From Bacteroidota bacterium (GTDB taxonomy: Bacteria; Bacteroidota; Bacteroidia; AKYH767-A; 2013-40CM-41-45), in assembly GCA_031417555.1 (NCBI GenBank), contig JANOVV010000028.1, forward strand, positions 9,914-73,913: 64,000 nt of DNA, in the 5' to 3' direction. The notes below the pieces were generated by a model, which saw nothing but the letters and a program-made list of their open reading frames with translations, had not been told where the DNA came from and ran no database searches. The translations under genes were made by a program, and so were the position numbers. Below, piece by piece: positions 30,267-64,000 of the stretch (position 1 is the first letter of the stretch; each line of letters opens with the position of its first letter).

Positions 30267-30734
30267 TTAATTTTTATTATCTACCGTAATGTCTTTAAAG
30301 GCTTGTCCTAATTCATCCATATCATGATTAAATTCACGTTTGAAAGATTCCCAATCGCTTTGATTTTTCTCATAATTTACCAATCTTGCTTTAAGTTCAT
30401 TGTTTCTTTGCTCTAATGTTTCAATTCGTTTTTCATAGAGCCCGTCAAGTATCTTACCCGGTTTTTTCATTTTCACTTTTAACTCAGCAATACGATTTTC
30501 ATTATTTCTGATTTTTTCATCCGTTTCAATTTTAAATGCATTCCATTCTTCGGCACTGGCTACTTTTTGTGCTTCTTTATTGGCATCATCACGGACTTCT
30601 TTTAATTCTTCTTTGGCTTCTTGTACATTTTCTTTGGCATTTTCTTCTTTTTGTGAAGCGGACTGACAGCCGGTAAAAATTATACCTGATATTAGAGTAG
30701 ATGCAATTGCATAGGAAATGATTGTTTTTTTCAT
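30267..30734 (-). CDS. Charged coiled-coil lipoprotein
   Basis: Lipobox IFTGC; E/K-rich helices with WNAFK and WESFK repeats. Confidence 0.8.
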   Translation of the reverse strand: MKKTIISYAIASTLISGIIFTGCQSASQKEENAKENVQEAKEELKEVRDDANKEAQKVASAEEWNAFKIETDEKIRNNENRIAELKVKMKKPGKILDGLYEKRIETLEQRNNELKARLVNYEKNQSDWESFKREFNHDMDELGQAFKDITVDNKN

Positions 30735-30826
30735 TTTATATTTATTTAAATTTAGTTTTCGGCGATTAGAAATATCGTTTAACGGATTCCTCTGTTAAAC
30801 GACTACTTTTTTACAAAAGCGATTGA

Positions 30827-31012
30827 TTAAAGTGCATTGATTATTTGGTGTAATTCTTCTTTTGTTTTACCAAGTTTAACCTGGATTTTTCCAAACATCT
30901 CATCTTTTTTACCTTCTTCGAACATTAGATCATTGTCTGTTAATTGAGCATACTTTTGTTTCAATTTACCTTTTTGCTCATTCCAGTTTCCTTTTAATTC
31001 TGTAGTATTCAT
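30827..31012 (-). CDS. csbD: CsbD-family general stress protein
   Basis: [24 protein letters not shown]...[18 protein letters not shown]. Confidence 0.92.
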
Positions 31013-31085
31013 TTTTTTTATTTTTTAATTCCGTAAAATCGGAGACCGCATTTGGCGGGACAACAGTGAATTAATTTTCACCATG

Positions 31086-31152
31086 TAAAGTTGGGGCAAT
31101 TAGAAGCTTATTATGTTATATAATTATCATGAATGATTACATTATTCACACA
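31086..31152 (-). promoter_or_regulatory. Island promoter module, copy 1 (csbD)
   Basis: Plus-strand TTA cores at 31116 and 31137 (21 bp apart); -7 box CAACTTTA at 31086-31093 (offset 30). Confidence 0.8.
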
Positions 31153-31267
31153 TTGTTTTAAGTGGTTTTTAAATTAGCCCTTTACTAGTAATTAATACGG
31201 GGAAATAATATAAATTTCAATGTGTTATTTCGCAGAAAAAGCTCTTATTGTTGATTAACAGGTACTA

Positions 31268-32676: not shown

Positions 32677-32743
32677 CAAATTTGCAACCTTTGAATTTAT
32701 ATAGTGTTACATAACTATTGAAATAAGTTACATTATTCTCACT
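32677..32743 (-). promoter_or_regulatory. Island promoter module, copy 2
   Basis: Cores at 32707 and 32728; -7 box CAAATTTG at 32677 (offset 30). Confidence 0.85.
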
Positions 32744-34358: not shown

Positions 34359-34423
34359 CAAATGTTCTATTAATTTATCAAAGAATATTACATAATATTT
34401 ATAAAAAATTATAACATTCCACT
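34359..34423 (-). promoter_or_regulatory. Island promoter module, copy 3
   Basis: Cores at 34388 and 34409; -7 box AACATTTG at 34359 (offset 29). Confidence 0.7.
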
Positions 34424-34465: not shown

Positions 34466-34873
34466 TTATGCTAGGATTGTGAAAATGTTAGAATTTTGTC
34501 TTTTACTCCCCGATTTCAATAACTTTTTTATCATTTTTAATAGTATTTCCATTTCGAATGGTTTAACAATAAACTCATCTGCGCCTAGTTTCAAAGATTC
34601 GATTCGATCAATTTTTTCTGACATGGACGTACTGAAAATGAAAGGTATTTCTTTTGTTTTTGCAGTTTCTAAAAGTATGTGTAAGACTTCATAGCCATCC
34701 ATTTCAGACATTAATACATCACAAATGATTAAATCAGGATTGTATTCTTGTGCTAATTCTATTCCTTTTCGTCCGGTATTTGCAACAAGAATTTTATATC
34801 CTTCTATTTCGAGGAATTCAGATAAATTTTCTAAAATATTAATATTGTCTTCAATTAATAAGATTGTTTGCAT
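34466..34873 (-). CDS. Single-domain response regulator
   Basis: LLIED, ICDV.M..MDG and KPF motifs; no output domain. Confidence 0.9.
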   Translation of the reverse strand: MQTILLIEDNINILENLSEFLEIEGYKILVANTGRKGIELAQEYNPDLIICDVLMSEMDGYEVLHILLETAKTKEIPFIFSTSMSEKIDRIESLKLGADEFIVKPFEMEILLKMIKKLLKSGSKRQNSNIFTILA

Positions 34874-34898
34874 TTATTTAAGATTAGCAATATTTTTA

Positions 34899-35357
34899 TT
34901 AGTGCTCAACCATCATATCCCGCATACTTTTTACTTTGTCATGGTCAGCTTTTAATAATACAAGCTGCGCATTTATTAATGTTTGTTGCTCAGATGTAAT
35001 ATTCTCTATATCATTTTTTAATACTTTATTGTAGGTATCAATAGCAGCATCTTCTCCATATTCACATGAACTGAGAATTTCCTTGCGGTTTTTTCCGGTA
35101 AGTGCAGCTTTTACATCCATCCAAACTCTAAAAAATTTTCCGGATGTTTTAGTTCCCTCAATTGGGCTACCACCTAATTTATTGACTTCCGTAACTAATT
35201 CTACTTTGCATTTCTGACTTGTTTGTAAAAACATTGAAAATATTTTTTTTAAATCACCTTCTTCAGTTTCATTTAAGGCTGTTTCATACCCTTTAATTCT
35301 ATCATTATTAATTTCAATAAGCATATTTAATGCGTCGATTGATTTTTCTTTATTCAT
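34899..35357 (-). CDS. PA2169-family (DUF2383) ferritin-like four-helix-bundle protein
   Basis: LIEINNDRIKGY, RVWMDVKAAL and CEYGEDAA...Y motifs. Confidence 0.88.
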   Translation of the reverse strand: MNKEKSIDALNMLIEINNDRIKGYETALNETEEGDLKKIFSMFLQTSQKCKVELVTEVNKLGGSPIEGTKTSGKFFRVWMDVKAALTGKNRKEILSSCEYGEDAAIDTYNKVLKNDIENITSEQQTLINAQLVLLKADHDKVKSMRDMMVEH

Positions 35358-35369
35358 TTTATTTAATTT

Positions 35370-36980
35370 TTAAATTTTTATTTCTTCATTTATATTTATT
35401 CTTTTTAAATCAGATGATGCAGGACCATTAATAACTTTTCCTACAGTCGTAAAGCGCGAACCATGCATTGGACAATCAAATGTTTTCTCATCAGCATTCC
35501 AGTGGAGAATCGCACCTAAGTGAGGACATACTGCAGTGCAGGTATGAAGAGTGCTTTGCTCATCACAATAAACTGCAATTTTCTTTAGTCCTGCAGAAAA
35601 TATTCCGCCTTCACCTGGATTCAGTTTATTTGCTTCTTTTATATCATCTGAAGTTAGCCAGTCTCCATATTGCGCAACCACATTTCCAACTTCATGCAAA
35701 TAGTCACCGGTAGCTTTTAGTGAAATTCGTGAAGGACTATATATTTTAACCCATGGATTTTCTTTTCCACAAATTATATCTGTGATAATCATTCCCCCAA
35801 GTGTTCCGTGTGTCATACCATTACCCGAGTCACCGGTAATGATATAGATATTTTCATTACCTGGATTTTTACCTATGAATGCTAATGAATCAATAGGTTC
35901 CATTACTTGACCGGACCATTTGAATTCAATAGATTCAATAGCAGGGAATCGTTTCTTTGTCCATTCTGCTAGTTTAGTATAACGGTCAACTTCTTCTATA
36001 TTCTCATCATCTGCCTGACCTGTGCGGTGGTCTTCACCACCTGAAATCAGTATATCATATTTATCATCAAATTCTTCCAAACGCACATAATGATATGGTT
36101 TTGATATCCACATTGAATCATGATCACCGGTATCCCACCATAATGCATAAGGTAATGTTCCTTTAAGGATCTTTGCTGCTATAACATAGGTTCGATAAGG
36201 CCATTGCTTAGTGTGCATTGCGACCCAATCATTAACAGGAGTATTGGTAGCAACTACAATGTGATTTGCCTTTATCTTGAAGCCGTTTCCAGTAGCCCCT
36301 TCCTTAGAAATGTTTTCGGCTTTAGTTTCTGTATATATTTTTCCACCCAGTTGAATAAATGCATCTGCCAATCCTTTCATATAAAGAAGAATATGAAACT
36401 GCGCTTGATTTGAAAATTTAATACACGAATTATCTTTTTCTACTGATATGGAAGGAATTGAACTTAACAGCTCTGTGTCAAGTCCGGCATTTTTAGTTGC
36501 TTCGTATTCTTTCTCAAGCGTTTCTTTTGTATCCGTAGGATTTAAAAATAAAAAGCCATCAATCCTTTTAAAATGGCAATCTATCTCATGTAATTTAATT
36601 GTGTCTTCTATCCATTGAATTGCAGCCATATGGCTTTGAGCGGCTAATTGTGCAATATGTTTGTCAAATTTTTTTTCCAGTTCAAAATAACGATCATCAA
36701 GCGCACATGTAAGATGACCGGTTGTTCTGCCGGTTTCACCGCTTCCAATAAATCCGTCTTCGACCAAAACTACTTTACGACCTTCTTTTGCTAAGCAATA
36801 TGCAGTAGTAAGCCCGGCAATGCCGCCACCAATAATTAATATATCTGTTTCAATATCCTCTGTTAATTTCTCAAAAACGATAGGGTCTTGAGCAGAAGAA
36901 AACCAAAAGGAAAAATTATCTCCGGAGGTAATATTTTCATTTACGGGTTCGGAAGAAGTTGTATTTAATGGAACTTTCAT
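35370..36980 (-). CDS. FAD-dependent oxidoreductase with a C-terminal Rieske domain (YhfW-like)
   Basis: GGGIAG, GETGRTTGHL and WSGQ motifs; Rieske ligands CPHLG...DCPMHGSRF. Confidence 0.9.
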   Translation of the reverse strand: MKVPLNTTSSEPVNENITSGDNFSFWFSSAQDPIVFEKLTEDIETDILIIGGGIAGLTTAYCLAKEGRKVVLVEDGFIGSGETGRTTGHLTCALDDRYFELEKKFDKHIAQLAAQSHMAAIQWIEDTIKLHEIDCHFKRIDGFLFLNPTDTKETLEKEYEATKNAGLDTELLSSIPSISVEKDNSCIKFSNQAQFHILLYMKGLADAFIQLGGKIYTETKAENISKEGATGNGFKIKANHIVVATNTPVNDWVAMHTKQWPYRTYVIAAKILKGTLPYALWWDTGDHDSMWISKPYHYVRLEEFDDKYDILISGGEDHRTGQADDENIEEVDRYTKLAEWTKKRFPAIESIEFKWSGQVMEPIDSLAFIGKNPGNENIYIITGDSGNGMTHGTLGGMIITDIICGKENPWVKIYSPSRISLKATGDYLHEVGNVVAQYGDWLTSDDIKEANKLNPGEGGIFSAGLKKIAVYCDEQSTLHTCTAVCPHLGAILHWNADEKTFDCPMHGSRFTTVGKVINGPASSDLKRININEEIKI

Positions 36981-37443: not shown

Positions 37444-37508
37444 CAAAGGTGAAAATATATGCTGTGATTAAGTTACATAACTATATCAAAAAGTTGTATG
37501 ATTCACTT
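37444..37508 (-). promoter_or_regulatory. Island promoter module, copy 4
   Basis: Cores at 37473 and 37494; -7 box CACCTTTG at 37444 (offset 29). Confidence 0.8.
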
Positions 37509-37851: not shown

Positions 37852-38286
37852 TTAAAATATATTTTCAACTAATAAATTATTTTCATTTTTTTCTTTTCGT
37901 AAAAAAATAAATTCTTCGCGAATTTTATTTGCAATTTCTGCGCGTGACAGTTTATTATTTTCACAGTAAACCTTTAAATTTAATTGTTCACAAAACAATT
38001 TGTGCAATAATGGAGTATTTTCGAATTGTTTTAGTTTGAAATTATTTTTTAATTGGGACGGGAGGAGTTGTTCGTGTGCGATGTGAAAGACTAGTTTGAT
38101 AAGCGTTACACAAAGTGATGGATGTTTTTGTTCAATTAAATTTTGATTAAAAACTTCTTGAAATGTTCTGAATAGAATTTGTTCTGCTATTTCAGTAGTT
38201 GGTGAAATTTCAAGTGCTATCCCATAGACTAAGGGACTGTATGAATCGTAGATTTTTTCAAATTTTATCTCAGATTGCGATTTCAT
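37852..38286 (-). CDS. Hypothetical protein with a degenerate ECF-sigma region-2-like N-terminus
   Basis: FEKIYDSYSPLVYGIAL...AEQIL..TF resembles the start of ECF sigma factors; the remainder is divergent. Confidence 0.55.
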   Translation of the reverse strand: MKSQSEIKFEKIYDSYSPLVYGIALEISPTTEIAEQILFRTFQEVFNQNLIEQKHPSLCVTLIKLVFHIAHEQLLPSQLKNNFKLKQFENTPLLHKLFCEQLNLKVYCENNKLSRAEIANKIREEFIFLRKEKNENNLLVENIF

Positions 38287-38348
38287 ATTGCAATACTTTT
38301 TAAGTTATTTAAAATAAAATTGGAAGTATCTAATATTATTTATTGATT

Positions 38349-38468
38349 TTACGAACATTGACCGAGCAGAAACCAGATAATGGCGAATACGATTATTGTC
38401 CCAAAACAGCCACCACCCAATTTTTTTGCACCATATCCGGAAATAAGTCCTCTCAATAAATTATTCAT
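38349..38468 (-). CDS. 39-aa membrane micro-protein (not in the ORF track)
   Basis: MNNLLRGLISGYGAKKLGGGCFGTIIVFAIIWFLLGQCS*; ATG lies 28 bp after the previous stop; one TM helix. Confidence 0.7.
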   Translation of the reverse strand: MNNLLRGLISGYGAKKLGGGCFGTIIVFAIIWFLLGQCS

Positions 38469-38495
38469 AATATTTATTTTGACAGCAAGATTTAA

Positions 38496-38912
38496 CTATT
38501 GATTCTCATTTTGAGTAAAATTCTGATTTGACTTCTTTTTAAAACTTAAAATATTGAATAAAATATTTTCACCGGTTGTTTTAATACCTTCAGTATGTTT
38601 TGACACAACCTTTGCAATGGCAAATTGAAAAAGTGAACCTAATAGAATTTTTATTGGGTTTCTGGAACTTCCTAATAAAACCTTTTTTGAAATGTAACCG
38701 GTAGTCAATCCAATTACATTATTGAGTACATTATTTTTGAGTTCAGGTGATGAAGCAACATCAGCCAATGTACTTTTAATTAGATTTATTGGCTTTAAAC
38801 TTTCATAGGTAATTTGAAACTGTTCTTTAAGCACTAGAAATTCAATCTCTTTTTTTTTCTGCAAAACTTCAATGACTTTATTTAAAGCGTCTGTTTGATT
38901 TATATTTTTCAT
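38496..38912 (-). CDS. Hypothetical protein, third gene of the ytxH cluster
   Basis: Start overlaps the upstream stop at 38912; YESLKP.NLIK and GYISKK motifs. Confidence 0.7.
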   Translation of the reverse strand: MKNINQTDALNKVIEVLQKKKEIEFLVLKEQFQITYESLKPINLIKSTLADVASSPELKNNVLNNVIGLTTGYISKKVLLGSSRNPIKILLGSLFQFAIAKVVSKHTEGIKTTGENILFNILSFKKKSNQNFTQNENQ

Positions 38913-39262
38913 TAAAGCTTTTCCTTTAAAATTTGAGAAATGATACTATTGCTAATCGGATATTTAATCCATTGGTTCCGAAATGTGTAAAGTAGAATGA
39001 TTAGTAAAATATAAAAGGCTCCTACTATGAAAAAACCATAGTAAGTTTTACCCAGCATTTCACCAATCCACAAGGCGATTCCAATATTTATAATTAATGT
39101 AAACAATGCAACAACCATAGAAATTACCAAATGTACAGCCAGGGTTGATGCAACTTCAGCTGACTTGTCAATAGCATTCATTTTGAATAACTCTATTGTC
39201 GTTTTGCTAAAGTTTTCGGCTTTTTCAAAAAGCGTTTCTATTGGTGTTGCAGTGTCTTTCAT
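38912..39262 (-). CDS. Two-TM YqjE-like ('phage holin family') membrane protein
   Basis: T.IELFK...IDK helix followed by two TM helices (ALWIGEMLG..YYGF.IVGAFY). Confidence 0.7.
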   Translation of the reverse strand: MKDTATPIETLFEKAENFSKTTIELFKMNAIDKSAEVASTLAVHLVISMVVALFTLIINIGIALWIGEMLGKTYYGFFIVGAFYILLIILLYTFRNQWIKYPISNSIISQILKEKL

Positions 39263-39314
39263 AATAATTTAATGTTAGTTTCTATTTAGGATATGGTAGA
39301 AAATAAACTAAATG

Positions 39315-39712: not shown

Positions 39713-39778
39713 TAAAGATCGTTTTGAATAAAATGATTCAGGTTATATAACTATCTGAAAAAGTTATATAATTCCTGC
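39713..39778 (-). promoter_or_regulatory. Island promoter module, copy 5 (ytxH)
   Basis: Cores at 39743 and 39764; -7 box GATCTTTA at 39713 (offset 30). Confidence 0.8.
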
Positions 39779-40001: not shown

Positions 40002-40057
40002 TGTTTTTATTTTTAAATTATTTAAATTATTTAAATTATTTATTATTTTTATTTTTT

Positions 40058-40903: not shown

Positions 40904-40938
40904 ATTAATAAAATATATTTTTTTAAATATTATTTATT

Positions 40939-53604: not shown

Positions 53605-55506
53605 TTATTCGGCGGGAATATAAATATCAAATTGTGCACCTTTATTTAATTCACTTTTAGCTGAGATTATTCCACTGTGATTTTCAACTATTTTTTTTAC
53701 GATTGCAAGCCCGATTCCAGTACCGGCATAAACTTCTTTACCGTGAAGTTTTTGGAACACTTCAAAAATACGTTCACTAAAGTGTGGCTCGAAGCCAATG
53801 CCATTATCTTTTATTGTGATATGGCAATAGTTCTTTCCGGATGAAAGTTTTGGATTATTTAATGTACTGCCTTTTACATTTTGACTCTTGATTGATATAA
53901 TCGGAGAAACACCGGGATTTGAAAATTTGAGTGCATTACTTATAAGATTGTACATAAGCTGGCGAAATTGAAAAGAAATAATGTTTGCATATCCAAGTTC
54001 AGTTGATTCAATTTTGGCTTGTTTTTCTTGAATGGTATCTCTTAATTCTGCTTTTACTTCTTCTATAATTAATTTTAGTTCTGTTTTTTCAAATTTTAGT
54101 TCTGTAGTGCTAATTCGCGAAAATGCCAGTAAATCATCAATAAGTTGTTGCATTCTTCCAGCAGCTAATTGCATCCTTTTAAAATTATATTGGCCATTTT
54201 CAGAGAGCTTTTCATTCTCAAGTATAATCGTAACAAAAGTTTGAATTTTACGAAGAGGTTCTTGCAAATCATGACTAGATACATAGGTGAAAGCAATAAG
54301 CTCTTTGTTGGCAATAATTAACTCGGCTGCTCGTTTTTCTTTCTCTTCATTTTGAAAAGCAAGTTCTTTGTTGGCAATGCCTAACTCTGCAGCCCGTTTT
54401 TCTTTCTCTTCATTTTGAAAAGCAAGTTCCTTGTTTGCAATACCTAACTCAGCTGCTCTTTTTTCTTTCTCTTCGTTTTGATAGGCGAGTTCTTTGTTGG
54501 CAACACCTAATTCTGCTGCTCGCTTTTCTTTTTCATCGTTTTGATAAGCAAGTTCTTTGTTGGCAATGCCTAACTCTGCAGCCCGTTTTTCTTTCTCAGC
54601 ATTTTCAAAGACAAGTTTTTTGTTGGCAATACCTAACTCATCTGCACGTTTTTCTTTCTCTTTGTTTTCAAAGGCAAGTTTTTTGTTGGCAATGCCTAAC
54701 TCCGCTGCCCGTTTTTCTTTTTCTTCATTTTGAAAAGCAAGTTCTTTATTAGCAATTCCTAATTCTGCTGCACGTTTTTCTTTTTCTTCGTTTTGAAAGG
54801 CTAGTTCTATGTTTGCAATACTTAGCTCCGCAGCGCGTTTTTCTTTTTCTTTATTTTGAAAGGCAAGTTCTTTGTTGGCAATGATTAATTCTGCCGCGCG
54901 TTTTTCTTTCTCTGCTGCCCGTTTTTCTTTTTCTATGTTTTGAAAAACTAGTTCTTTATTGGCAATGCCTAACTCTGCTGCTCTTTTTTCTTTCTCTTCG
55001 TTTTGATAGACAAGTTCTTTGTTGGCAATAATTAACTCTTCTGCCCGCTTTCCTTTCTCCTCGTCTTGAAAGACAAGTTCCTTGTTGGCAATGCCTAGCT
55101 CTGCTGCACGTTTCCCTTTCTCTTCATCTTGAAAGGCTAGTTCTATATTAGCAATGCCTAATTCTTCTGCCCGTTTTCCTTTCTCTTCGTCTTGAAAGGC
55201 TAGTTCTTTGTTAGCAATGCCCAACTCTGCCGCCCGCTTTTCTTTCTCTTCGTCTTGAAAGACTAGTTCCTTGTTAGCTATGCCTAACTCTGCCGCCCTT
55301 TTTCCTTTCTCTCCTTTTTGAAAGGCAAGCTCTTTGTTGGCAATCACTAACTCTGCTGCCCTTTTTCCTTTTTCTTCTTTTTGAATAACAAGTTCTTTGC
55401 GGGCAATCACTAATTCTGCTGCCAGTTTTTCTTTCTCTTCTTTTTGAACGGCAAGTTCTTTACGAAGAATGATTAACTCATTTTCCGTTTTATTTATTTT
55501 AACCAT
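53605..55506 (-). CDS. Soluble histidine kinase with an N-terminal 21-aa-repeat coiled coil
   Basis: H-box SHDLQEPLR, N-box NLISNALKF, G-boxes DNGIG and GTGIGL. Residues 8-403 are repeats; no TM helix. Confidence 0.93.
   Translation of the reverse strand: MVKINKTENELIILRKELAVQKEEKEKLAAELVIARKELVIQKEEKGKRAAELVIANKELAFQKGEKGKRAAELGIANKELVFQDEEKEKRAAELGIANKELAFQDEEKGKRAEELGIANIELAFQDEEKGKRAAELGIANKELVFQDEEKGKRAEELIIANKELVYQNEEKEKRAAELGIANKELVFQNIEKEKRAAEKEKRAAELIIANKELAFQNKEKEKRAAELSIANIELAFQNEEKEKRAAELGIANKELAFQNEEKEKRAAELGIANKKLAFENKEKEKRADELGIANKKLVFENAEKEKRAAELGIANKELAYQNDEKEKRAAELGVANKELAYQNEEKEKRAAELGIANKELAFQNEEKEKRAAELGIANKELAFQNEEKEKRAAELIIANKELIAFTYVSSHDLQEPLRKIQTFVTIILENEKLSENGQYNFKRMQLAAGRMQQLIDDLLAFSRISTTELKFEKTELKLIIEEVKAELRDTIQEKQAKIESTELGYANIISFQFRQLMYNLISNALKFSNPGVSPIISIKSQNVKGSTLNNPKLSSGKNYCHITIKDNGIGFEPHFSERIFEVFQKLHGKEVYAGTGIGLAIVKKIVENHSGIISAKSELNKGAQFDIYIPAE
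54298..55485 (-). repeat. 63-bp tandem repeat (AAELGIANKELAFQNEEKEKR): 17 full units, 2 partial units and one 21-bp insert
   Basis: Counted from the translation. The insert AAEKEKR lies at 54898-54918. Confidence 0.92.
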
Positions 55507-55534
55507 ATTCAGGCTTGATAAAGTTGATTTGTTT

Positions 55535-56020
55535 TTAATTAACTAAACTGTTTTCCAATGTGAGCACAAAATTTTCTATGGTCGGTTGTAATATATTTCC
55601 TGAATTACCGATTGGCAGGTCTCGCATTAAAATCGCAACAGTTTGTTGAATTAGTTTTTTCAACTGTGAAAATTCTGCCGGTTTGCGGATGAAATAGTGT
55701 GCCCCATTTTTGTAAAGCTGATTTACAACGTCTTGTTCAAAAGAAGTTGAGTATATGATTACAGGAAGTTTATTCAGACTGTTATTTAGTTTTATTTCAT
55801 TTAAACATTCGAAACCATTTTTTCTGGGCATATTTAGATCCAGGAAAAGTACATCCGGAAGTTGATGAGAATTTTCATCTAGGTATACCATTAATTTTTC
55901 ACCATCCATAACTATTGCAAGCTGCGTTGGAACTGTTAATGATTCTAATGCCATACTAAAAAAGAAACGGTCATCTTTGTCGTCATCTGCTAAAAGGATA
56001 CTCAATTGTTTTATACTCAT
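55535..56020 (-). CDS. Single-domain response regulator
   Basis: LLADDD, FLDLNMPRKNG, YSTS and IRKP motifs. Confidence 0.92.
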   Translation of the reverse strand: MSIKQLSILLADDDKDDRFFFSMALESLTVPTQLAIVMDGEKLMVYLDENSHQLPDVLFLDLNMPRKNGFECLNEIKLNNSLNKLPVIIYSTSFEQDVVNQLYKNGAHYFIRKPAEFSQLKKLIQQTVAILMRDLPIGNSGNILQPTIENFVLTLENSLVN

Positions 56021-56493
56021 GCGTTAAGAATGTATTTTAATTGACTGGCTGAAACTATTTTATCTGATGCTATTGGAATCGCATGTTGAATAACTTGCAT
56101 AAGTTGGTTGAAATTGCCGGGCTTGCGGATATATATATTGGCTCCAATCTTAAAGGCATGGTTTATAGAATCCCGCGAATTCGATGTTGAAAATATAACT
56201 ATTGGAAGATCTTTAAGTCTATCGTTTTTCTTTATTTCAGATAAACATTCGAAACCGTTTTTACGCGGCATATTGATGTCTAAGAATAAAAGATTGGGAA
56301 GATCAATAGTTTCATTAGTGAGCAGTTGCATGAGTTCTTCTCCGTCATTGACTGTTTTCAGATTTGTGGATAGATTTAATTTAGCTAACGCTTCTTTAAA
56401 AAAATTGCAATCGTCGGTATCGTCATCTGCAAGGAGAATGTTTAGTGTTTTTATTTTTTTATAGTTCGGTAATGGTTCGTATAATATTTTCAT
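56017..56493 (-). CDS. Single-domain response regulator
   Basis: LLADDD, FLDINMPRKNG, FSTS and IRKP motifs. Confidence 0.92.
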   Translation of the reverse strand: MKILYEPLPNYKKIKTLNILLADDDTDDCNFFKEALAKLNLSTNLKTVNDGEELMQLLTNETIDLPNLLFLDINMPRKNGFECLSEIKKNDRLKDLPIVIFSTSNSRDSINHAFKIGANIYIRKPGNFNQLMQVIQHAIPIASDKIVSASQLKYILNA

Positions 56494-56517
56494 TATTTAA
56501 TGTATTAATACAATTTA

Positions 56518-56976
56518 TTACTTTCCGGAGTCTTTGGATGATTGTAATTCTAATAGTTTTGTAAGTGAAAGTTCAATAATATTCCTTAATTGTTTGAAAT
56601 CACCGGGTTTTCGAATATAGTTTTGTGCTCCTATTTCGAAAAGTTTATTTGCCAGGTCCAACTCATAAACTTTATCCCGTGAATAAGATGTTGAAAACAC
56701 AACTACATGGATATCTTTCAGTTTAATATTTTCTTTTATTTCAGTTAAACATTCGTATCCTGTTTTGCGTGGCATGCTCAGATCAAGAAAAAGAATGTCA
56801 GGCAAGTGTTCTAGGCTCTTACCAAGATAATCCATAAGCTCTTCTCCATCATTGACAGTTTTAAGTTGAGTGGGAATAGTAATTTCCTTTAATGCGTTCT
56901 CGAAAAATAATCGATCGTCTTTATCATCATCTGCAAGTAAAATATTAATTACAGTATTCATTTGATTTGTTTTCAT
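56518..56976 (-). CDS. Single-domain response regulator
   Basis: LLADDD, FLDLSMPRKTG, FSTS and IRKP motifs. Confidence 0.92.
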   Translation of the reverse strand: MKTNQMNTVINILLADDDKDDRLFFENALKEITIPTQLKTVNDGEELMDYLGKSLEHLPDILFLDLSMPRKTGYECLTEIKENIKLKDIHVVVFSTSYSRDKVYELDLANKLFEIGAQNYIRKPGDFKQLRNIIELSLTKLLELQSSKDSGK

Positions 56977-56983
56977 ATTTAAT

Positions 56984-57418
56984 TTACATCCTCTCCATAT
57001 ACCAATTTAATTCTTTCTCCATTTTTTTGTAACGGAAAATTGTTGTAATAATTTTTCGTAAACGCATGAAGGCTGTTTCGCTTTTCACAACGTAGTCAAA
57101 AGCCCTGTGATGCATACAATTTACAGCGACTTCAATTTTATCCTGAGAGGATAACATAATAACAGGAATATCCTGATTATATGCTTTTATTTTATCCAAT
57201 GTTTCCATTCCATTCATTGCATTTTTATCGATACCATCGAGATGGTAATCTAGAATAATTACATCAGGACTGTGTGATAAATTTTCCATGCACAGTTCAC
57301 CTGTGGCAAATGTTTCGATTTCGAAATCGGCATTTTCTAAAAATTCTATTTCTAGTGATTTTAAAAAGACTGCATCATCATCTACTAAAAAGAGTTTAAT
57401 CTTACTTTCGTTTTTCAT
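56984..57418 (-). CDS. Single-domain response regulator (different subtype)
   Basis: FLVDDD, ILDYHL, LSSQD and DYVVKSET motifs; short C-terminal tail. Confidence 0.9.
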   Translation of the reverse strand: MKNESKIKLFLVDDDAVFLKSLEIEFLENADFEIETFATGELCMENLSHSPDVIILDYHLDGIDKNAMNGMETLDKIKAYNQDIPVIMLSSQDKIEVAVNCMHHRAFDYVVKSETAFMRLRKIITTIFRYKKMEKELNWYMERM

Positions 57419-59781
57419 TTATTTGTATTCTTTAATATATTATATTCATCTTCCAATTCTTTACAAGCTTGCATGCAAACTTTTTCAAGTTGTAATACTA
57501 AATCATTTATGTTTTCTGTTTGAAGTTGCGTATTTGCATATTCATGTACTTTTTTTGCTATATTTTCAAAATCTGTATGAATTCCCATAATTGAAAAAGA
57601 TGGAATCATTTTATGGGCCGCAGCTTGTAAAGAATTCCAATCTTTATTCTGCAGGCTTTGTTTCATATTATCAATTAATGATGGCGTTTGTTTTAAATAA
57701 AGACTAATCATTTCCATTATTAAAGCCGGATTTGATTTTGTATGTTTATTCAAATAGTTTAAATTGATATATTTTGCTATATTATCTTGTTTGCTTTTAT
57801 TTTGATTGTCCTGATTTATTTTTGTTTCAACTAATATAGATGTAGGTTTTCTTACTAAACTAATTATTTTGTTATACAACAATTCTTCGTTGACGGGTTT
57901 TGAAACATAATCGTTCATCCCAATCGCTTTGCATTTCGCTAAATCTACTGTTGTTACATCAGCTGTTAAAGCGATAATAGGAATTTTGGATTTCATTGTA
58001 TTCCTAATATATTCGGTGGCTTCAAATCCATTCATTTCAGGCATCTGTAAATCCATTAAAATAATGTCGTACGAATTAATTTTTAGTTTTTCAATAGCTA
58101 TCTTACCATTTTCTGCAATATCACGATCAAAACCTAAATCATCCAATATTGTTTTCATTAATAATTGATTAAGCGGAATGTCTTCAACAACTAATATTTT
58201 TACAGTTCTAATTTCTTTATTTATTTCTTCAGGTTCAATTTCTAAATTGACTTCTTCATTTGTTTTTTTAAAAGTCAAAGTAAAACTAAAAGTTGAACCT
58301 TCTTTAATCTTACTTTTTACATGGATAATTCCTCCTTGTGGTTCTACCAGTTGTTTCACAATGGCAAGCCCTAAGCCGGTTCCACCATATAATCGCGAGG
58401 TGCCGCTGGATGCTTGTTGAAAGTTTTCAAAAATATTTTCTAATTTATTTTCGGCTATTCCAATTCCTGTATCTGAAACCATAAATTCAATGGTGGCTTT
58501 TTCATTATTTTCACTAACCAGTCGGACGCTAACGGTTATTTTTCCACTGCTTGTAAATTTTACTGCATTACTAATCAGATTTAATATAATCTGATGCAAT
58601 CGTACCGGATCGCCTATAAGTACCTCCGGAATATTTTTGTCGTATTCTTTAACAAGTTCAAGATTCTTCTCCTGGATTTTTGTATCAAATAAATGAAGCA
58701 TTGCAGATATAGATAGCTCTAATTTAAAAGGGATTGCTTCAAATGACATTTTTCCTGAATCTACTTTGGCAAGATCAAGAATGTCGTTAATCAGAACTAT
58801 TAAAGCATCGCCACTCATTTTTATGGCAGTTAAATATTCTTTTTGTTTGGCCGTCAGGTCGGTTTTCAATACAACTTTTGTAAATCCTATTATTGCATTC
58901 ATCGGAGTGCGAATTTCATGACTCATGTTGGAAAGGAATTGCTGTTTGGCTTGAACTGCATTTTCTGCAATTATAGTTGCGCTTTCTGCATTAATCTTTG
59001 CTTTTTCGGCAATTTCAGTTGCTAATTCAGCAAATACTCTGGCTTCGATTAATTCTTTTTCTATTCTTTTTTGTTCTGTAATTACCCGGGCTACAACGAC
59101 AGCACCAAGTACTTTCCCTCTGTCGTCTTTATAAACGGATCCATTAAAAAGTACATCGGTTAGTTTTCCATCCATCATTGTTAATGGAAAGTCTTCTACA
59201 AAACCATTTGCAAAAACCTGTTTATAACCTTCGCGGGCTTTTTCCGGTTCTGTAAAATACCTGGAGAAATCTGAACCAATTAGTTTCTCTCGGGATACAT
59301 GTGTTATTTTTACTGAAGCATTATTCATATCAGAAATTTTTCCTTCTGAATTAATTGTAAAAAGAGGATCGCGACTTGCTTCAATAAGGCTTAATGAATA
59401 TTTTGAAAGTAATTTTTGTGTTGTAACATCTCTTGCGACAATCACAACACCGAGAACATTTCCTTTATCATCTTTGTAAACAGACCCATTGAATAATACA
59501 TCTGTCAATTTTCCATTTGTATGACGGAGTGTAAGTGGAGAATCAGTTACAGAACCATTAGCAAACACTTCCTGGTAAACTTCTCTTGCTTTTTGAGGCT
59601 CAGTAAAATAATCGAAAAAATCAGTACCGGTAAGTTTCTCACGGCTCATTCCGGTAATATTTGCCAATGCCTGATTCATGTCGGTTATTTTTCCATGAGT
59701 ATTTATAGTAACCAATGGATCTAAACTGGCTTCTATTAAACTTCTCGCATACTGCGATTCAGGCATATTATTATTTTCCAT
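57415..59781 (-). CDS. Soluble hybrid kinase: PAS-PAS-HisKA-HATPase-REC-Hpt
   Basis: Two similar PAS repeats (SLIEAS.DPL.TIN), H-box SHEIRTPM, GGTGLGL, receiver LMDLQMP and Hpt-like AAHKMIPS; no TM helix. Confidence 0.93.
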   Translation of the reverse strand: MENNNMPESQYARSLIEASLDPLVTINTHGKITDMNQALANITGMSREKLTGTDFFDYFTEPQKAREVYQEVFANGSVTDSPLTLRHTNGKLTDVLFNGSVYKDDKGNVLGVVIVARDVTTQKLLSKYSLSLIEASRDPLFTINSEGKISDMNNASVKITHVSREKLIGSDFSRYFTEPEKAREGYKQVFANGFVEDFPLTMMDGKLTDVLFNGSVYKDDRGKVLGAVVVARVITEQKRIEKELIEARVFAELATEIAEKAKINAESATIIAENAVQAKQQFLSNMSHEIRTPMNAIIGFTKVVLKTDLTAKQKEYLTAIKMSGDALIVLINDILDLAKVDSGKMSFEAIPFKLELSISAMLHLFDTKIQEKNLELVKEYDKNIPEVLIGDPVRLHQIILNLISNAVKFTSSGKITVSVRLVSENNEKATIEFMVSDTGIGIAENKLENIFENFQQASSGTSRLYGGTGLGLAIVKQLVEPQGGIIHVKSKIKEGSTFSFTLTFKKTNEEVNLEIEPEEINKEIRTVKILVVEDIPLNQLLMKTILDDLGFDRDIAENGKIAIEKLKINSYDIILMDLQMPEMNGFEATEYIRNTMKSKIPIIALTADVTTVDLAKCKAIGMNDYVSKPVNEELLYNKIISLVRKPTSILVETKINQDNQNKSKQDNIAKYINLNYLNKHTKSNPALIMEMISLYLKQTPSLIDNMKQSLQNKDWNSLQAAAHKMIPSFSIMGIHTDFENIAKKVHEYANTQLQTENINDLVLQLEKVCMQACKELEDEYNILKNTNK

Positions 59782-59810
59782 TTATTCCGATACTATTTAT
59801 TGGGAGTAAA

Positions 59811-60398
59811 TCAATTATTATTTATTTGAATCTGATTGCCTATTTCTTCTATTGGCATTCGCTTTTTATCTTTTAATTTCTTGAAGTGCGATGGAGAAAG
59901 ACCTGTAACTTTTTTAAATTGATTTGAAAGATGAGCAACACTACTGTAATTCATTTTCCATGCAATTTCTGTAATATTTAATTCTCCGTAAATCATTAAT
60001 TCTTTTATCCGTTCAATTTTATGTGAAATGATAAATTGCTCTATAGTCGTTCCTTGTACTTCTGAAAATAAATTCGATAAATAGGTATAATCATGATTTA
60101 ATTTTTTACTCAAAAAATCAGAAAAATTGGTTTTTATTATTTCATCAGTATGATGAACCATTTCGATAATTACATTTTTAATTTTTTCGATTAATACTGC
60201 GCGTTTGTCATCCATCAATTCTAGACCGGAATTCAGCAATACAACCTTCATTTCTTCGCGTTGTTCAATAGAAATATTTTCCATGATTTCAACTTCGCCT
60301 AAATCAACAACAATAAAATGTAATCCAAGACTTTTTAATGCTTCTTTAACCGCCAATTTACAGCGATTACTGACCATGTATTTGATGTATATTTTCAA
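59811..60398 (-). CDS. AraC-family regulator with an HMA-like N-terminal domain (paralog 2, probable TTG start)
   Basis: TTG at 60398 gives MKIYIKYMVSNRC, which aligns with paralog 1. The ORF-track start at 60428 lies inside the -7 box. HTH is ITEIAWKMNYSSVAHLSNQFKKVTGLSPS. Confidence 0.9.
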   Translation of the reverse strand: MKIYIKYMVSNRCKLAVKEALKSLGLHFIVVDLGEVEIMENISIEQREEMKVVLLNSGLELMDDKRAVLIEKIKNVIIEMVHHTDEIIKTNFSDFLSKKLNHDYTYLSNLFSEVQGTTIEQFIISHKIERIKELMIYGELNITEIAWKMNYSSVAHLSNQFKKVTGLSPSHFKKLKDKKRMPIEEIGNQIQINNN

Positions 60399-60425
60399 AT
60401 GGTTCTGTTTTAATTGAGACTTGTA

Positions 60426-60491
60426 CAAATTTGTGTTTTTTAAGACCTGTAATTGTTATAGAACTTTCTTTAATTGTTACATAATTCACAC
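60426..60491 (-). promoter_or_regulatory. Island promoter module, copy 12 (AraC-phosphorelay operon)
   Basis: Cores at 60456 and 60477; -7 box CAAATTTG at 60426 (offset 30). Confidence 0.85.
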
Positions 60492-60761: not shown

Positions 60762-60787
60762 CCAAAAAAATTGCGTAGTATAATAAA

Positions 60788-63133
60788 ATGATTCTAAAAC
60801 ATAAATTAAGAAAAATACTTTTAATAGTAATCGGTGTATTACTTATTACTTCTGTTGTAATAATTTTATTCATTTCACCAATTACTAAATATTTAATTGA
60901 AAAAAATGATGAAAAATATACTGGTAGAAAAATTACAATTGATTGGGCATACGTAAATCCTTTTACCGGCTTTGTACATTTAAAAAATATAAAAATTAAT
61001 GAATTCAAAAGTGACAGTATTTTCTTTTCTTCCAATGGACTTAGTATTAATTTTTCACTTTATAAATTATTTTCTAAAACTTATGAGATAAGTGAGCTAA
61101 CCTTGGATAAGCCTCGGGGATATATTATTCAAAATAAAAACGATTTTAATTTTAATGATATTATTAAAATGTTTTCACCCGATGAAGTTATAGATACTAC
61201 CAAACTTCCTTTGCACTTTAACATACTTAGCATAAAAATTAAGAATGGAGAATTCTATTACCACGAGCCACTAATTCCTATCAATTATTATATTAAAAAT
61301 GTAAATTTAGAAAGTACCGGTAAACGTTGGGATTCTGATTCTATAACAACTTCTATTTCATTTGTGCCTGGTATTGGAAGTGGTGAAATAAAGGGTAACA
61401 TAACTATAAATTTGAAAAACAATGACTATCATTTTGATGTTAGAATTAAAAAGTTTGATTTAAATATCATTGGGCAATATTTAAAAGATTTGACCAATTA
61501 TGGTAATTTTTCTGCAAACCTTGATGCTGATGTCAAATCAAAAGGAAATTTTAACGATCCTCAGGATGTGACCACTAAAGGGTTCATTCAGATTAATGAC
61601 TTTCATTTTGGGAAAACAAACATAAATGATTATGCATCTTTTGATAAATTATCTTTAACGATGAAAGAAATAAGTCCTAAAAATCATATTTATCTTTTTG
61701 ATTCTGTAATACTAAGTCATCCTTATTTTAAATATGAGAGATATGATTATTTGGATAATATTCAGACCATGTTTGGTGTTGATGGATCAAATCTGACTGC
61801 TGCTAATGCTAGTAATACTAAATTTAATTTGGTAATAGAAATTGCGGATTATGTTAAAATACTTGGTAGAAACTTTTTTCAAAGCTATTATCAAATTAAC
61901 AGGTTTGCTATTAATAAAGGTGATATTAAGTTTAATGATTTTTCTTTGGGTGAAAAATTTTCTGTGGATTTAAATCCATTATCTATTGTTGCAGATTCTG
62001 TCGATAAAAACCATAATCGGGCAAATGTTTTTTTTAAAACCGGCATTAAGCCATATGGTGATGCCGAAGTAAATCTCAGTATAAATCCAAAAGATACGGG
62101 AGATTTTGATATGCAATATAATCTTAAAAAATTTCCAGCATCTATGTTTAACCCGTATTTAATCTCATATACATCTTTTCCGCTTGATAGGGGAACGATT
62201 GAAGTTAACGGTACGTGGAATGTCAGAAATGGAATTATCAAAAGTGATAATCATTTGGTTATTATAGATCCTCGTGCTACTAAAAGATTGAGGAATAAAG
62301 ATGCTAAATGGATACCGTTGCCATTGATATTATCATTTATTCGTGAGCGTGGAAATGTAATCGATTATGAAATTCCAATAACCGGAAATATGAAGAATCC
62401 AAAATTCCATTTACGCGATGTGATTTTTGATTTACTTGAAAATATTTTTGTGAAACCTGCGACAACATCGTATAGGTTGCAAGTTAAAAATATTGAAACT
62501 GAAATAGAGAAATCGCTTACTTTAAAATGGGGACTTCGAAATTCTGAATTGCTTCCTACACAGGTTAAATTTTTAGAAAAAATGGCTAACTTCCTGGAGA
62601 AAAATCCTGAGTCAGGCATCGTAATATATCCTCATGTTTACACAATAAAGGAAAAAGAATATATCCTTCTTTATGAAGCAAAAAAGAGGTATTATATAGC
62701 ATCAAATAATATCGATGCTCGAATGTACAATGAACATGATTCTGAGCTTGTAGATAAGATGGCCATAAAAGATACACTTTTTGTTCAATACCTGAATAAG
62801 CAGGTAAACGATTCAATGGTATTTACAATTCAAGAAAAATGTTCCAGAGTTATCGACGAGTCGATAGTAAATGATAAGTTCAGGAAATTAAAGAAAGATA
62901 GGGAAGAAGCATTTAAAATTTACTTTAAAGAAAATGATGTTATTAAGAGAATTGAATTAAGCGAGACTGAAAATGTAATTCCTTACAATGGATTTTCATA
63001 TTATAAAATCAAATATAAAGGAGAATTACCGGAATATTTGATTGATGCTTATAAAAAAATGAACGAATTAAACGATGAGGCACCACGCGATAAATTTAAA
63101 AATTTCCGTAAAAAGGATAAGAGTGTATTATAA
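60788..63133 (+). CDS. DUF748 / AsmA-like envelope protein
   Basis: N-terminal membrane anchor, GRKI.I....VNPF.G, long beta-rich body and IDYEIPITG....PKF. Confidence 0.75.
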   Translation: MILKHKLRKILLIVIGVLLITSVVIILFISPITKYLIEKNDEKYTGRKITIDWAYVNPFTGFVHLKNIKINEFKSDSIFFSSNGLSINFSLYKLFSKTYEISELTLDKPRGYIIQNKNDFNFNDIIKMFSPDEVIDTTKLPLHFNILSIKIKNGEFYYHEPLIPINYYIKNVNLESTGKRWDSDSITTSISFVPGIGSGEIKGNITINLKNNDYHFDVRIKKFDLNIIGQYLKDLTNYGNFSANLDADVKSKGNFNDPQDVTTKGFIQINDFHFGKTNINDYASFDKLSLTMKEISPKNHIYLFDSVILSHPYFKYERYDYLDNIQTMFGVDGSNLTAANASNTKFNLVIEIADYVKILGRNFFQSYYQINRFAINKGDIKFNDFSLGEKFSVDLNPLSIVADSVDKNHNRANVFFKTGIKPYGDAEVNLSINPKDTGDFDMQYNLKKFPASMFNPYLISYTSFPLDRGTIEVNGTWNVRNGIIKSDNHLVIIDPRATKRLRNKDAKWIPLPLILSFIRERGNVIDYEIPITGNMKNPKFHLRDVIFDLLENIFVKPATTSYRLQVKNIETEIEKSLTLKWGLRNSELLPTQVKFLEKMANFLEKNPESGIVIYPHVYTIKEKEYILLYEAKKRYYIASNNIDARMYNEHDSELVDKMAIKDTLFVQYLNKQVNDSMVFTIQEKCSRVIDESIVNDKFRKLKKDREEAFKIYFKENDVIKRIELSETENVIPYNGFSYYKIKYKGELPEYLIDAYKKMNELNDEAPRDKFKNFRKKDKSVL

Positions 63134-63184
63134 TGGAATAAAATATAAGACGATTAATTCATTTTCAATAGATGAATTGCACAA

Positions 63185-63250
63185 ACGTGAATTATGTAAC
63201 TTATACCAAAAGTTTTGTAACATGCAAAACATTCTATATTCATTTCTTTG
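63185..63250 (+). promoter_or_regulatory. Island promoter module, copy 14
   Basis: GTGAATTATGTAAC-ttataccaaaa-GTTTTGTAAC; cores end at 63199 and 63220; -7 box TTTCTTTG ends at 63250. Confidence 0.85.
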
Positions 63251-63304
63251 CAGTCTTATTTATGAAGTAAAATAATTTTTAAACAATTAATTATACAAAT
63301 TTCT

Positions 63305-64000
63305 ATGAAAAAATATGTTTTTATTGCTGCAACTGCATTAGTAATGTCAGCTTGTAATCAAAATGAACTTACGGAATCAAATCGCCAGAAAGATTCATTG
63401 ATGTCAGTTGTCAATGAGCGTGATTCATTTATTAACGACTTTATTTCTTCGTTTAATGATGTGGAAAGGAATCTTGATTCTGTTGCTGTAAGACAGCATA
63501 TTATTGCTGTTAATTCAGATAAGCCCGGTGAGCTAAAGCCTACTCAGAAAGCAAGAATTAATGCGGAGATTGCTTCTATTAATAGTTTAATGGATCAAAA
63601 TCGAAAAAAAATTGCTGAATTAAATCGTAAAATCAAAAATTCATCAAGCAAAAATGCACAGCTAGAGAAAATGATTGCTACACTTAACGATCAGTTGGCT
63701 AAGAAAGATATAGAACTCGCCGATTTAAATGCGAAGCTGAATTCATTAAATGCACAAGTAGCTACTTTAGAGACTTCAGTTGATACTCTCATGGCTCGCA
63801 ATGGTGCTCAATCACAAACTATTGCTGAAGAAACAATGGCTTTACATACAGCTTACTTTGTGGTCGGTAAATCAAATGATTTACAAGATGCAAAAATCAT
63901 CGACAGAAAAGGCGGACTGCTTGGTATTGGCAGAACTTCTAAATTAAGTCAGGATTTCGATAACAGTAAGTTTACTCGAATCGATTACACGGTAACAAAT
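63305..64000 (+). CDS. Coiled-coil lipoprotein, 3' truncated (not in the ORF track); resembles Bacteroides Cbp1-like lipoproteins
   Basis: Starts MKKYVFIAATALVMSAC (lipobox), then a long heptad region and AYFVVG...KGGLLGIG; runs off the window end. Confidence 0.75.
   Translation, partial: MKKYVFIAATALVMSACNQNELTESNRQKDSLMSVVNERDSFINDFISSFNDVERNLDSVAVRQHIIAVNSDKPGELKPTQKARINAEIASINSLMDQNRKKIAELNRKIKNSSSKNAQLEKMIATLNDQLAKKDIELADLNAKLNSLNAQVATLETSVDTLMARNGAQSQTIAEETMALHTAYFVVGKSNDLQDAKIIDRKGGLLGIGRTSKLSQDFDNSKFTRIDYTVTN

Follow-up and report, generated by a model that had tools for sequence, protein, structure and literature searches.

The 64,000-nucleotide stretch analysed here, referred to as the window, covers positions 9914 to 73913 of contig JANOVV010000028.1 (C28) in a 3.97-Mb, 138-contig genome assembly of a Bacteroidota bacterium (GCA_031417555.1). 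From position 30267 to the end of the window almost every gene lies on the minus strand. This region holds an island of genes from stress-type families, an operon for an AraC-type regulator, a hybrid histidine kinase and single receivers, and 13 promoters that share a 35-nt direct repeat, called the module below (Table 1). A first-pass annotation of this DNA had proposed a general-stress island in which output genes known from sigma-factor regulons are wired instead to an AraC protein and a phosphorelay. The sequencing runs in which this DNA was found are freshwater-sediment metagenomes, with no RNA run among them.

The module has the form GTGAATnATGTAAC-N11-TTnTGTAAC, and 12 of its copies in the window are on the minus strand and one is on the plus strand. 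On the minus strand, 12 pairs of TGTAAC-type hexamers are spaced by exactly 21 bp, compared to 0-4 pairs for any other spacing between 7 and 39. With a 42-column position weight matrix derived from the 13 copies, the copies themselves score 26-46 bits and the runner-up position in the 64 kb scores 7.7. Written as a degenerate IUPAC pattern with one mismatch allowed, the element gave 11 matches versus 0.01 expected from 100 shuffles, a circular figure because the pattern was built from these same sites; independent support for the module comes from other genomes. Over the whole genome the pattern matched 21 times, versus once in shuffled sequence. Each window site lies in an intergenic gap and faces a gene at a fixed distance, and conservation is limited to the 35-nt core and a -7 box. 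In every one of the 13 promoters this box (TTTG in nine, TTTA in three, TTAG in one) begins 21-22 nt past the 42-nt matrix window, with 25 nt between the end of the proximal hexamer and TTTG. Module 5 is nearly palindromic, its hexamer pair being matched on both strands, unlike the other twelve sites.

The available part of PMC9723704 places the sigma-A (housekeeping) -7 box of Flavobacterium psychrophilum, TAnnTTTG, at -12 to -5. On that scale the proximal TGTAAC of the module would occupy about -39 to -34, the distal hexamer -60 to -55 and the GTGAAT extension about -68 to -63. All 13 window sites lack a TTG at the -33 position. The predicted geometry is that of class-II activation, in which an activator site stands at -35/-33 of a promoter that does not have that box and, as no TTG is present there, the module promoters are predicted to depend on a factor bound at the -33 position.

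At a threshold of at least 18 bits, the matrix finds 22 sites in the whole 3.97-Mb genome, 18 of them on C28 between contig positions 41028 and 92571. These 22 comprise the 13 training sites, five extra sites on C28 and four on other contigs. The five extra sites, together with two weaker ones (14-16 bits), continue up to 18.7 kb beyond the window, and a right edge at position 64000, as drawn in the first-pass annotation, is not borne out; the island, with its 18 of 22 genome sites, spans ~53 kb. The left edge was rightly described as a strong bidirectional terminator. Here, a perfect hairpin of 18 pairs, preceded by an A-run and followed by a T-run, separates a convergent Rieske oxygenase gene on the plus strand from an sll1863-like gene on the minus strand, and the matrix scan of the window found no module site to the left of it.

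The regulator operon behind module 12 begins with the gene of an AraC protein whose N-terminal domain resembles HMA domains. A second such protein is encoded within the island; the two share 67% identity, and a third paralogue, encoded on contig C27, shares 52%. Both the HTH_18 score and the fold identify the C-terminal domain of ~100 residues with two helix-turn-helix motifs that is typical of AraC/XylS proteins, and no Response_reg match was obtained by Pfam in either island AraC ORF (open reading frame), so that neither is a REC-AraC fusion. The mechanically assigned start of the first gene, TTG 60428, falls within its own -7 box. The true start is likely TTG 60398, which would give an N-terminus like the MKLYIKNM of the paralogue, with ATG 60377 as an alternative. 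Because module 12 precedes the AraC-kinase operon, the regulator of this operon appears to be autoregulated.

An AlphaFold2 model of this protein, made from an alignment of 42 sequences (predicted local distance difference test, pLDDT, 78), comprises a beta-alpha-beta-beta-alpha-beta domain at residues 11-71, which a long helix links to an AraC DNA-binding domain. Foldseek matched the DNA-binding domain to AraT (6swi), AdpA, YesN (3lsg), MarA, SoxS and Rob. For the N-terminal domain the matches were two copper chaperones, CopZ (6ff2) and Atx1 (2xmt), with template-modelling scores of 0.65-0.72 on the target. The sequence M-V-S-x-R-C is invariant in the 42 aligned proteins, which carry SxxC instead of the metal-binding MxCxxC motif. 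The third paralogue (C27:22081-22641, minus strand) has a full M-A-C-E-S-C and adjoins a Dps-like gene and genes for small membrane proteins. As this paralogue keeps the motif beside a Dps-like gene, its sequence suggests that the SxxC regulators of the island may descend from a metal- or redox-sensing form. Two of the module sites outside the island, C69:55630 and C69:76729, carry a GTGATT variant of the distal box and precede paralogous 136-residue Cys-rich HYC_CC_PP proteins, with an HMA protein and an efflux pump as neighbours by eye. These two sites may constitute a sub-regulon of the CxxC paralogue.

Directly downstream of the AraC gene, the hybrid kinase begins immediately with a PAS domain; a reading of its translation revealed no membrane segment, and the protein has no AraC domain. 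Its phospho-acceptor sites are recognizable as the H-box SHEIRTP, the receiver Asp in ILMDLQMP and the His of the HPt domain in AAAHKM. The next gene encodes a receiver-only protein of 144 residues (RR144), in which D13, D14, D57, S90 and K112 are invariant in 51 sequences and a C-terminal extension is conserved. All residues of a phosphorelay are present, from the kinase His through the REC Asp and HPt His to the Asp of a terminal receiver, and phosphotransfer along them is predicted. In the second kinase of the operon, the first ~390 residues (54320-55506) are composed of ~18 tandem 21-residue repeats with a consensus near KELAFQNEEKEKRAAELGIAN.

Of 301 genomes sampled from the phylum, 155 have a near-full-length AraC homologue at E 1e-20 or better; a family with small genomes, represented by 63, has none at this threshold. 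Loci were compared around the best 80 AraC orthologues in named records, which are 78-89% identical and come from several orders (1.31 Mb scanned). Carriers include Flavobacterium, Chryseobacterium, Lutibacter, Aequorivita, Chitinophagaceae and Cytophagales as well as Prolixibacteraceae, Mariniphaga, Sunxiuqinia, Labilibaculum, Odoribacter and many uncultured Bacteroidota; among the culturable, non-pathogenic carriers are Flavobacterium glaciei DSM 19728, F. urumqiense CGMCC 1.9230, F. sinopsychrotolerans CGMCC 1.8704 and Sunxiuqinia indica. The scans used the matrix trained on this window alone, with the reversed matrix as a control, and returned 200 sites of at least 18 bits versus 0 for the control. 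At least one site was present in 73 of the 80 loci and three or more in 31; a same-strand site lay no more than 400 nt upstream of the AraC gene in 62. The spacing to the -7 box is largely retained: 131 of the 200 sites have a TTTG that starts at offset 22 (120 sites) or offset 21 (11 sites), and an ORF start lies 25-300 nt downstream of 194 of the 200. Among 27 unrelated Bacteroidota loci (~93 kb) there were no sites of at least 14 bits.

Operon conservation was assessed by searching these loci with the island proteins (tblastn, hits at E 1e-8 or better that cover at least half of the query). The AraC protein was recovered in all 80 loci (median identity 84%), the hybrid kinase in 68 (72%) and RR144 in 66 (79%). 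All three occurred together in 64 loci, in the order AraC-kinase-receiver in 10 of 12 loci among those listed, and the other receivers and the repeat kinase were not conserved. This comparison of synteny and motif co-occurrence, of the kind suggested by the first-pass annotation, supports the proposed wiring. The island is a locally very concentrated instance of a phylum-wide circuit, and the architecture is not special to it.

The same types of output recur in these relatives. The first ORFs behind the 132 sites that do not precede an AraC gene were assigned to families at E 1e-6 or better, and comprise 19 ice-binding-like proteins, 17 CsbD proteins (11 above the Pfam cut-off), eight single receivers, six DUF5670, four OmpA, three YtxH and three kinases. 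Dps, DUF2383, DUF892, Usp, MlaE and ten other families occur once each, and 57 ORFs have no family. GH130 and GT1 relatives are found near AraC orthologues in 12 and 6 of the 80 loci, respectively.

In the island itself, gene families were called by Pfam and NCBIfam on the window ORFs, and the units behind the 13 sites were assigned by gene order and gaps. The csbD, ytxH, lmo0937-like, PA2169-like, DUF1003 and cupin genes that had been named from the sequence were all matched by these families, and the hydrophilin-like gene stands by its composition. The gene described as YhfW-like encodes a DAO and Rieske oxidoreductase, while the YqjE-like label fares less well, as this holin-X-like membrane protein matches Phage_holin_3_6 at 21.5 bits, below the cut-off of 28.4. 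A promoter module common to all of these genes had also been claimed. This holds for 13 promoters and most of the named genes, but not for three of the nine named gene kinds (DUF1003, PA2169-like and DAO-Rieske): no module precedes the DUF1003 gene or the group of DAO-Rieske, DUF2383 and receiver (RR135) genes, nor is there one before the second AraC gene.

Two metallophosphoesterases and an AsmA/DUF748 protein are also encoded in the window. The GH130 and GT1 pair could make a protective sugar or surface glycan as a candidate product. The gap at 38287-38495 inside the ytxH operon (minus strand) contains a 39-codon ORF for a Gly-rich hydrophobic peptide. The 20 kb past the window encode an AI-2E transporter, Dps, MlaE/F/D, a low-affinity iron permease, OmpA, an alpha/beta hydrolase, a CsbD-like ORF, a second sll1863-like ORF, BrkB, a type IX secretion system (T9SS) metallophosphoesterase and small ORFs. 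Apart from the two weaker sites, the sites in this region face OmpA, BrkB, a DUF2541 protein and two small ORFs. Far to the left of the island, the plus strand at about 2000-6000 of the window is GC-rich (0.47-0.50 versus ~0.32 around it) and has collagen-like Gly-X-Y codon repeats, which sit inside a very large ORF upstream of genes with T9SS tails.

Table 1 Features of the island and its regulator operon, in window coordinates; bit values of modules are matrix scores.
Feature	Position	Strand	Remarks
Bidirectional intrinsic terminator, left island edge	30218..30256	.	18-pair stem, 7 GC pairs, 3-nt loop
sll1863-family stress protein	30267-30734	-	Pfam/NCBIfam; same unit as csbD (30267..31012)
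csbD	30827-31012	-	CsbD 56.7 bits
Module 1	31115..31149	-	37.9 bits; upstream of csbD
DUF1003 membrane protein	31268-31819	-	no own module; behind terminator-like hairpin 31900-31928
Outer-membrane beta-barrel gene	31973-32656	-	behind module 2
Module 2	32706..32740	-	45.0 bits; upstream of beta-barrel gene
ORF	32882-33466	-	behind module 3
Metallophosphoesterase	33463-34329	-	behind module 3
Module 3	34387..34421	-	26.1 bits, weakest; upstream of metallophosphoesterase
Single receiver	34466-34873	-	in group 34466..36980, no module upstream
PA2169 family/DUF2383	34899-35357	-	TIGR02284 84.4 bits; no module upstream
DAO+Rieske oxidoreductase	35370-36980	-	no module upstream
Hydrophilin-like ORF	37060-37404	-	grand average of hydropathy (GRAVY) -2.35, Gly 7.9%; followed by terminator 37024-37051
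Module 4	37472..37506	-	41.5 bits; upstream of hydrophilin-like ORF
ytxH operon	37852..39593	-	behind module 5
Sigma-like ORF (extracytoplasmic function, ECF), 144 residues	37852-38286	-	last gene of ytxH operon
ORF of ytxH operon	38496-38912	-
Holin-X-like membrane protein of ytxH operon	38912-39262	-
YtxH	39315-39593	-	67.4 bits
Module 5	39742..39776	-	39.5 bits; upstream of ytxH
Operon behind module 6	39783..43081	-
Small membrane ORF	39783-40001	-	operon behind module 6
PAP2 phosphatase	40058-40903	-	operon behind module 6
DUF3943	40939-42510	-	operon behind module 6
lmo0937 family/DUF5670	42547-42702	-	NF033488 62.5 bits; operon behind module 6
ORF	42758-43081	-	operon behind module 6
Module 6	43142..43176	-	37.3 bits; upstream of ORF 42758-43081/DUF5670 operon
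Cupin	43296-43679	-	27.8 bits, barely above cut-off
Module 7	43734..43768	-	42.1 bits; upstream of cupin
Second HMA-like AraC paralogue, 186 residues	43811-44371	-	HTH_18 54.9 bits; no module upstream
Zn-phospholipase C	45766-47034	-	behind module 8
Small membrane ORF	47240-47434	-	behind module 8
Module 8	47489..47523	-	33.3 bits; upstream of 47240-47434 and phospholipase C
GT1 glycosyltransferase, 793 residues	47527-49908	-	behind module 9
GH130	49898-50941	-	behind module 9
Module 9	51064..51098	-	42.6 bits; upstream of GH130 and GT1
PAP2	51122-52033	-	behind module 10
ORF	52053-52637	-	behind module 10
Module 10	52704..52738	-	42.1 bits; upstream of 52053-52637 and PAP2
ORF	52785-53168	-	behind module 11
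ORF	53241-53453	-	behind module 11
Module 11	53499..53533	-	43.7 bits; upstream of 53241-53453 and 52785-53168
Regulator operon	53605..60428	-	AraC, hybrid kinase, RR144, three receivers, repeat kinase; gaps 0-30 nt
Second kinase with repeats	53605-55506	-	repeats ahead of HisKA-HATPase core
Three more single receivers	55535-56976	-
Receiver-only RR144, 144 residues	56984-57418	-
Hybrid kinase, 788 residues	57415-59781	-	PAS-PAS-HisKA-HATPase-REC-HPt
HMA-like AraC, 205 residues	59811-60428	-	HTH_18 62.0 bits (cut-off 33.6)
Module 12	60455..60489	-	41.5 bits; upstream of AraC-kinase operon; TTTG at 60429-60426
Module 13	63187..63221	+	45.8 bits; upstream of Cbp1-family lipoprotein gene
Cbp1-family coiled-coil lipoprotein gene	63305 to beyond window end	+	behind module 13

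An island without an intact alternative sigma factor, as the first-pass annotation had it, needs qualification. It is correct in that Pfam finds no Sigma70_r2 match on the 160-kb contig C28, with 13 matches elsewhere in the genome, but the module-headed ytxH operon ends in an ORF that resembles an ECF sigma factor. This ORF has no Pfam match even at E 10. By language-model features it resembles sigma clusters (0.93), and its predicted structure (pLDDT 84) has SigL, SigW, SigK, SigH, BldN, AlgU and PhyR as top Foldseek matches, at probabilities of 0.9-1.0 and weak E values of 0.02-1. Two genuine sigma genes in the same genome are hit in their region 2 by the profile of its family (E 6e-9 and 6e-7); against the sequences of PDB, this profile gave SigL at a non-significant E of 1.2. 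The 33 homologues listed are 100-191 residues long, 29 of them 128-158, compared to about 160-200 for ECF sigma factors. Full-length relatives are present in 2 of the 301 sampled genomes, its own included. In the other carrier, the sigma-like gene stands, by eye, beside a DUF2383 gene on a contig that also holds an AraC orthologue. From model and sequence together, the ORF is a putative short, conserved and divergent ECF sigma relative and not a gene fragment. As the last gene of a module-headed operon, it is predicted to be an output of the regulon and not its master. In a general stress response run by a sigma factor, the regulon promoters are recognized by a dedicated alternative sigma factor encoded alongside its regulators; the island instead has promoters with a housekeeping -7 box, no Sigma70_r2 match on the contig and a sigma-like ORF in operon-terminal position.

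Taken together, we favour, with a probability of roughly 0.6, AraC-type class-II activation of a protective regulon at housekeeping-sigma promoters with input from a phosphorelay. The island would form most of a regulon that protects the cell and remodels its envelope, and members of this regulon would include CsbD, YtxH, sll1863-like, hydrophilin-like and small membrane proteins, Dps, OmpA and Mla as well as PAP2 phosphatases, phospholipase C and the glycosyltransferase pair. Two subunits of the HMA-like AraC protein of the regulator operon would most likely bind the direct repeat, possibly assisted by the second island paralogue. The proximal TGTAAC copy would take the place of the -33 box, with the distal copy and GTGAAT one 21-bp period upstream, and the bound protein would act as a class-II activator that brings in the ordinary RNA polymerase holoenzyme, at its own operon as well. 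The phosphorelay would most likely end on RR144, which would turn the AraC protein on, and RR144 and AraC would then amount to a response regulator split over two polypeptides. The proposal that stress-type genes are wired to an AraC protein and a phosphorelay, and not to a switch of the sigma-B or RpoS type, is largely supported by the comparative evidence, as the repeat replaces the -33 box, precedes the AraC-kinase operon, tracks AraC orthologues and has the same outputs behind it in relatives; it is the wording on sigma factors that has to be modified as described above.

Several observations weigh against this interpretation. An ECF-sigma-like protein is encoded within the island, and the three gene groups without a module of their own had all been counted among its members. 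Not all sites are in the island: four are elsewhere, and two of these precede the Cys-rich proteins beside metal genes. The recognition helices of the three AraC paralogues are near-identical on reading, leaving the assignment of sites to paralogues ambiguous. Synteny is the evidence for contact between receiver and AraC protein, which we infer, and a complex prediction for the two, both entered as alignments, scored 0.01 in a run without controls and weighs neither way. The stress label is taken from family names, and the members are mostly of unknown biochemical function. Finally, the phylum-wide signal of the IUPAC pattern is weak. Of the 301 genomes, 86 had matches, mostly one or two (0-2 in most genomes with an AraC homologue), about as many as a control read backwards. 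An excess over this control is seen in a few genomes (G071 15/0, G147 10/2, G287 9/1, G239 7/1 and G022 8/3), and in at least 18 genomes hand comparison places a match within 10 kb of the AraC homologue. One genome, G277, has five matches and, among the matches listed, no AraC homologue at E 1e-20 or better. The weak signal reflects either drift of the motif or a pattern tuned too closely to this genome.

The same AraC and direct-repeat mechanism could also serve one specific cue, such as freezing or cold, desiccation, or a redox or metal signal perceived via the single cysteine, with the kinase operon being a target or feedback branch instead of the input. Ice-binding-like proteins are indeed the commonest output in relatives, but family scans of the window and the adjoining 20 kb found no ice-binding gene in this island, and the outputs cover many protective classes (Dps, OmpA, Mla, hydrophilins, Usp). 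A metal or redox cue would agree with the copper-chaperone fold and its invariant SxxC, with the CxxC paralogue beside Dps and with the two C69 sites near metal-handling genes, although the CxxC metal site itself has been lost in 42 of 42 aligned members of the lineage. Similarly, the kinase operon lies behind a module, as a target would, yet an AraC-kinase-receiver operon kept at 72-84% identity in 64 of 80 loci is hard to account for without a functional tie. We consider a single specific cue unlikely.

It is highly unlikely that the element is an alternative-sigma promoter, served by one of the ~eleven ECF-type sigma factors encoded elsewhere or by the sigma-like protein of the island, with the AraC gene as a mere member of the regulon. 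GTAAC-like -35 boxes do occur in ECF promoters, the genome has its 13 Sigma70_r2 matches, and the fold and profile matches of the sigma-like protein point in the same direction. Against this stand the 21-bp repeat and its fixed distance of 25 nt to a TTTG that, on the available part of PMC9723704, is the housekeeping -7 box of the phylum and not an ECF -10 of the CGT type; the distance between the proximal hexamer and the -7 box also differs from the 16-17-nt spacer of ECF promoters. Moreover, the motif accompanies the AraC orthologue in nearly all of the compared loci and full-length relatives of the sigma-like protein were found in only two of the 301 sampled genomes; the gene order of the island would make this protein an output. 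A dispersed non-regulatory or mobile repeat of the repetitive extragenic palindrome (REP) or miniature inverted-repeat transposable element (MITE) type, or a recently transferred mobile island, would explain why the sites cluster in one region, and is scarcely credible otherwise. The flanks of the sites differ outside the 35-nt core and -7 box, the window sites are all intergenic and face genes, almost all sites in relatives have an ORF start at promoter distance, and the same element stands before the same families in several orders. The island is not read as a mobile element, and this reading was rejected, because no tRNA genes were found in it, no integrase, transposase or conjugation family was matched among the island ORFs scanned, and its GC content (~0.30-0.34) is comparable to that of the flanks in the GC profile of the window.

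Class-II activation by the HMA-like AraC protein can be extended into a more specific picture, which we put forward tentatively and which is possible more than probable. A general stress response of Bacteroidota would be run by a response regulator split over two proteins, with a soluble PAS relay that phosphorylates a receiver-only protein, the latter docking on the degenerate metallochaperone-like domain of a near-invariant AraC activator that in turn acts on housekeeping promoters without a -33 box. The ancestral CxxC form would survive as a paralogue, and the regulon would feed a short sigma-like protein, possibly as a second tier or as a PhyR-like sigma mimic. If the circuit is what it appears to be, Bacteroidota, a dominant phylum of soils, waters, sediments and guts, would gain a candidate master switch, and one small regulator, a kinase, a receiver and a 35-nt site would allow a regulon to be predicted from sequence alone. 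The same protective proteins (CsbD, YtxH, lmo0937, Dps) would be controlled by an activator instead of a sigma factor, and dozens of small proteins of unknown function would acquire a physiological context. An inducible promoter with its regulator would also become available for genetics in Flavobacterium, Chitinophaga and relatives.

Switching of sigma factors (sigma-B, RpoS, EcfG) is the textbook mechanism of general stress responses, and CsbD/YjbJ, YtxH, lmo0937, Dps, OmpA-like proteins and hydrophilins are regulon members in organisms with these sigma factors. Searches of the full-text literature outside subscription journals turned up neither the motif nor the regulator, and no general stress response of Bacteroidota. 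The available part of PMC9723704, which gives sigma motifs of F. psychrophilum, does not describe this element, and TGTAAC matches in PMC5395568 are CRISPR repeats and not this motif. The circuit appears to be undescribed; its components, an AraC activator and a phosphorelay, are of familiar types, but their arrangement and role are new.

Among known activators, AraC at araI1-I2, XylS at Pm, RhaS/RhaR, MelR and MarA/SoxS/Rob act in class-II fashion at tandem direct repeats or class-II promoters. The island regulator shares with these AraC/XylS proteins the two helix-turn-helix motifs, a pair of direct-repeat half-sites at a 21-bp period whose proximal member overlaps the -35/-33 region of a promoter without that box, and apparent autoregulation. 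It differs in its N-terminal domain, which is an HMA/ferredoxin-like SxxC fold of ~70 residues and not a cupin, sugar-binding or other known effector domain, in the -7/-33 promoters of Bacteroidota, in a broad protective regulon in place of a catabolic operon, and in an identity of 78-89% across orders. Like REC-AraC regulators (YesN, AraT) and the hybrid two-component systems (HTCS) of Bacteroides, it combines an AraC-type output with two-component control and has kinase, receiver and AraC genes together. However, receiver and AraC domain are separate proteins here, in contrast to YesN and AraT. An HTCS is a membrane-bound single polypeptide with a periplasmic sensor, whereas the island kinase is soluble, carries two PAS domains and its own REC and HPt, and is encoded apart from the AraC gene. 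The outputs overlap with those of the sigma-B, RpoS and PhyR-NepR-EcfG responses, and with the last of these, known from Alphaproteobacteria, the circuit also shares a phosphorelay with a receiver at its top. Unlike sigma-B in Bacillus and Listeria, RpoS in E. coli and EcfG, the predicted master of the island is not a sigma factor, and the housekeeping -7 box is kept.

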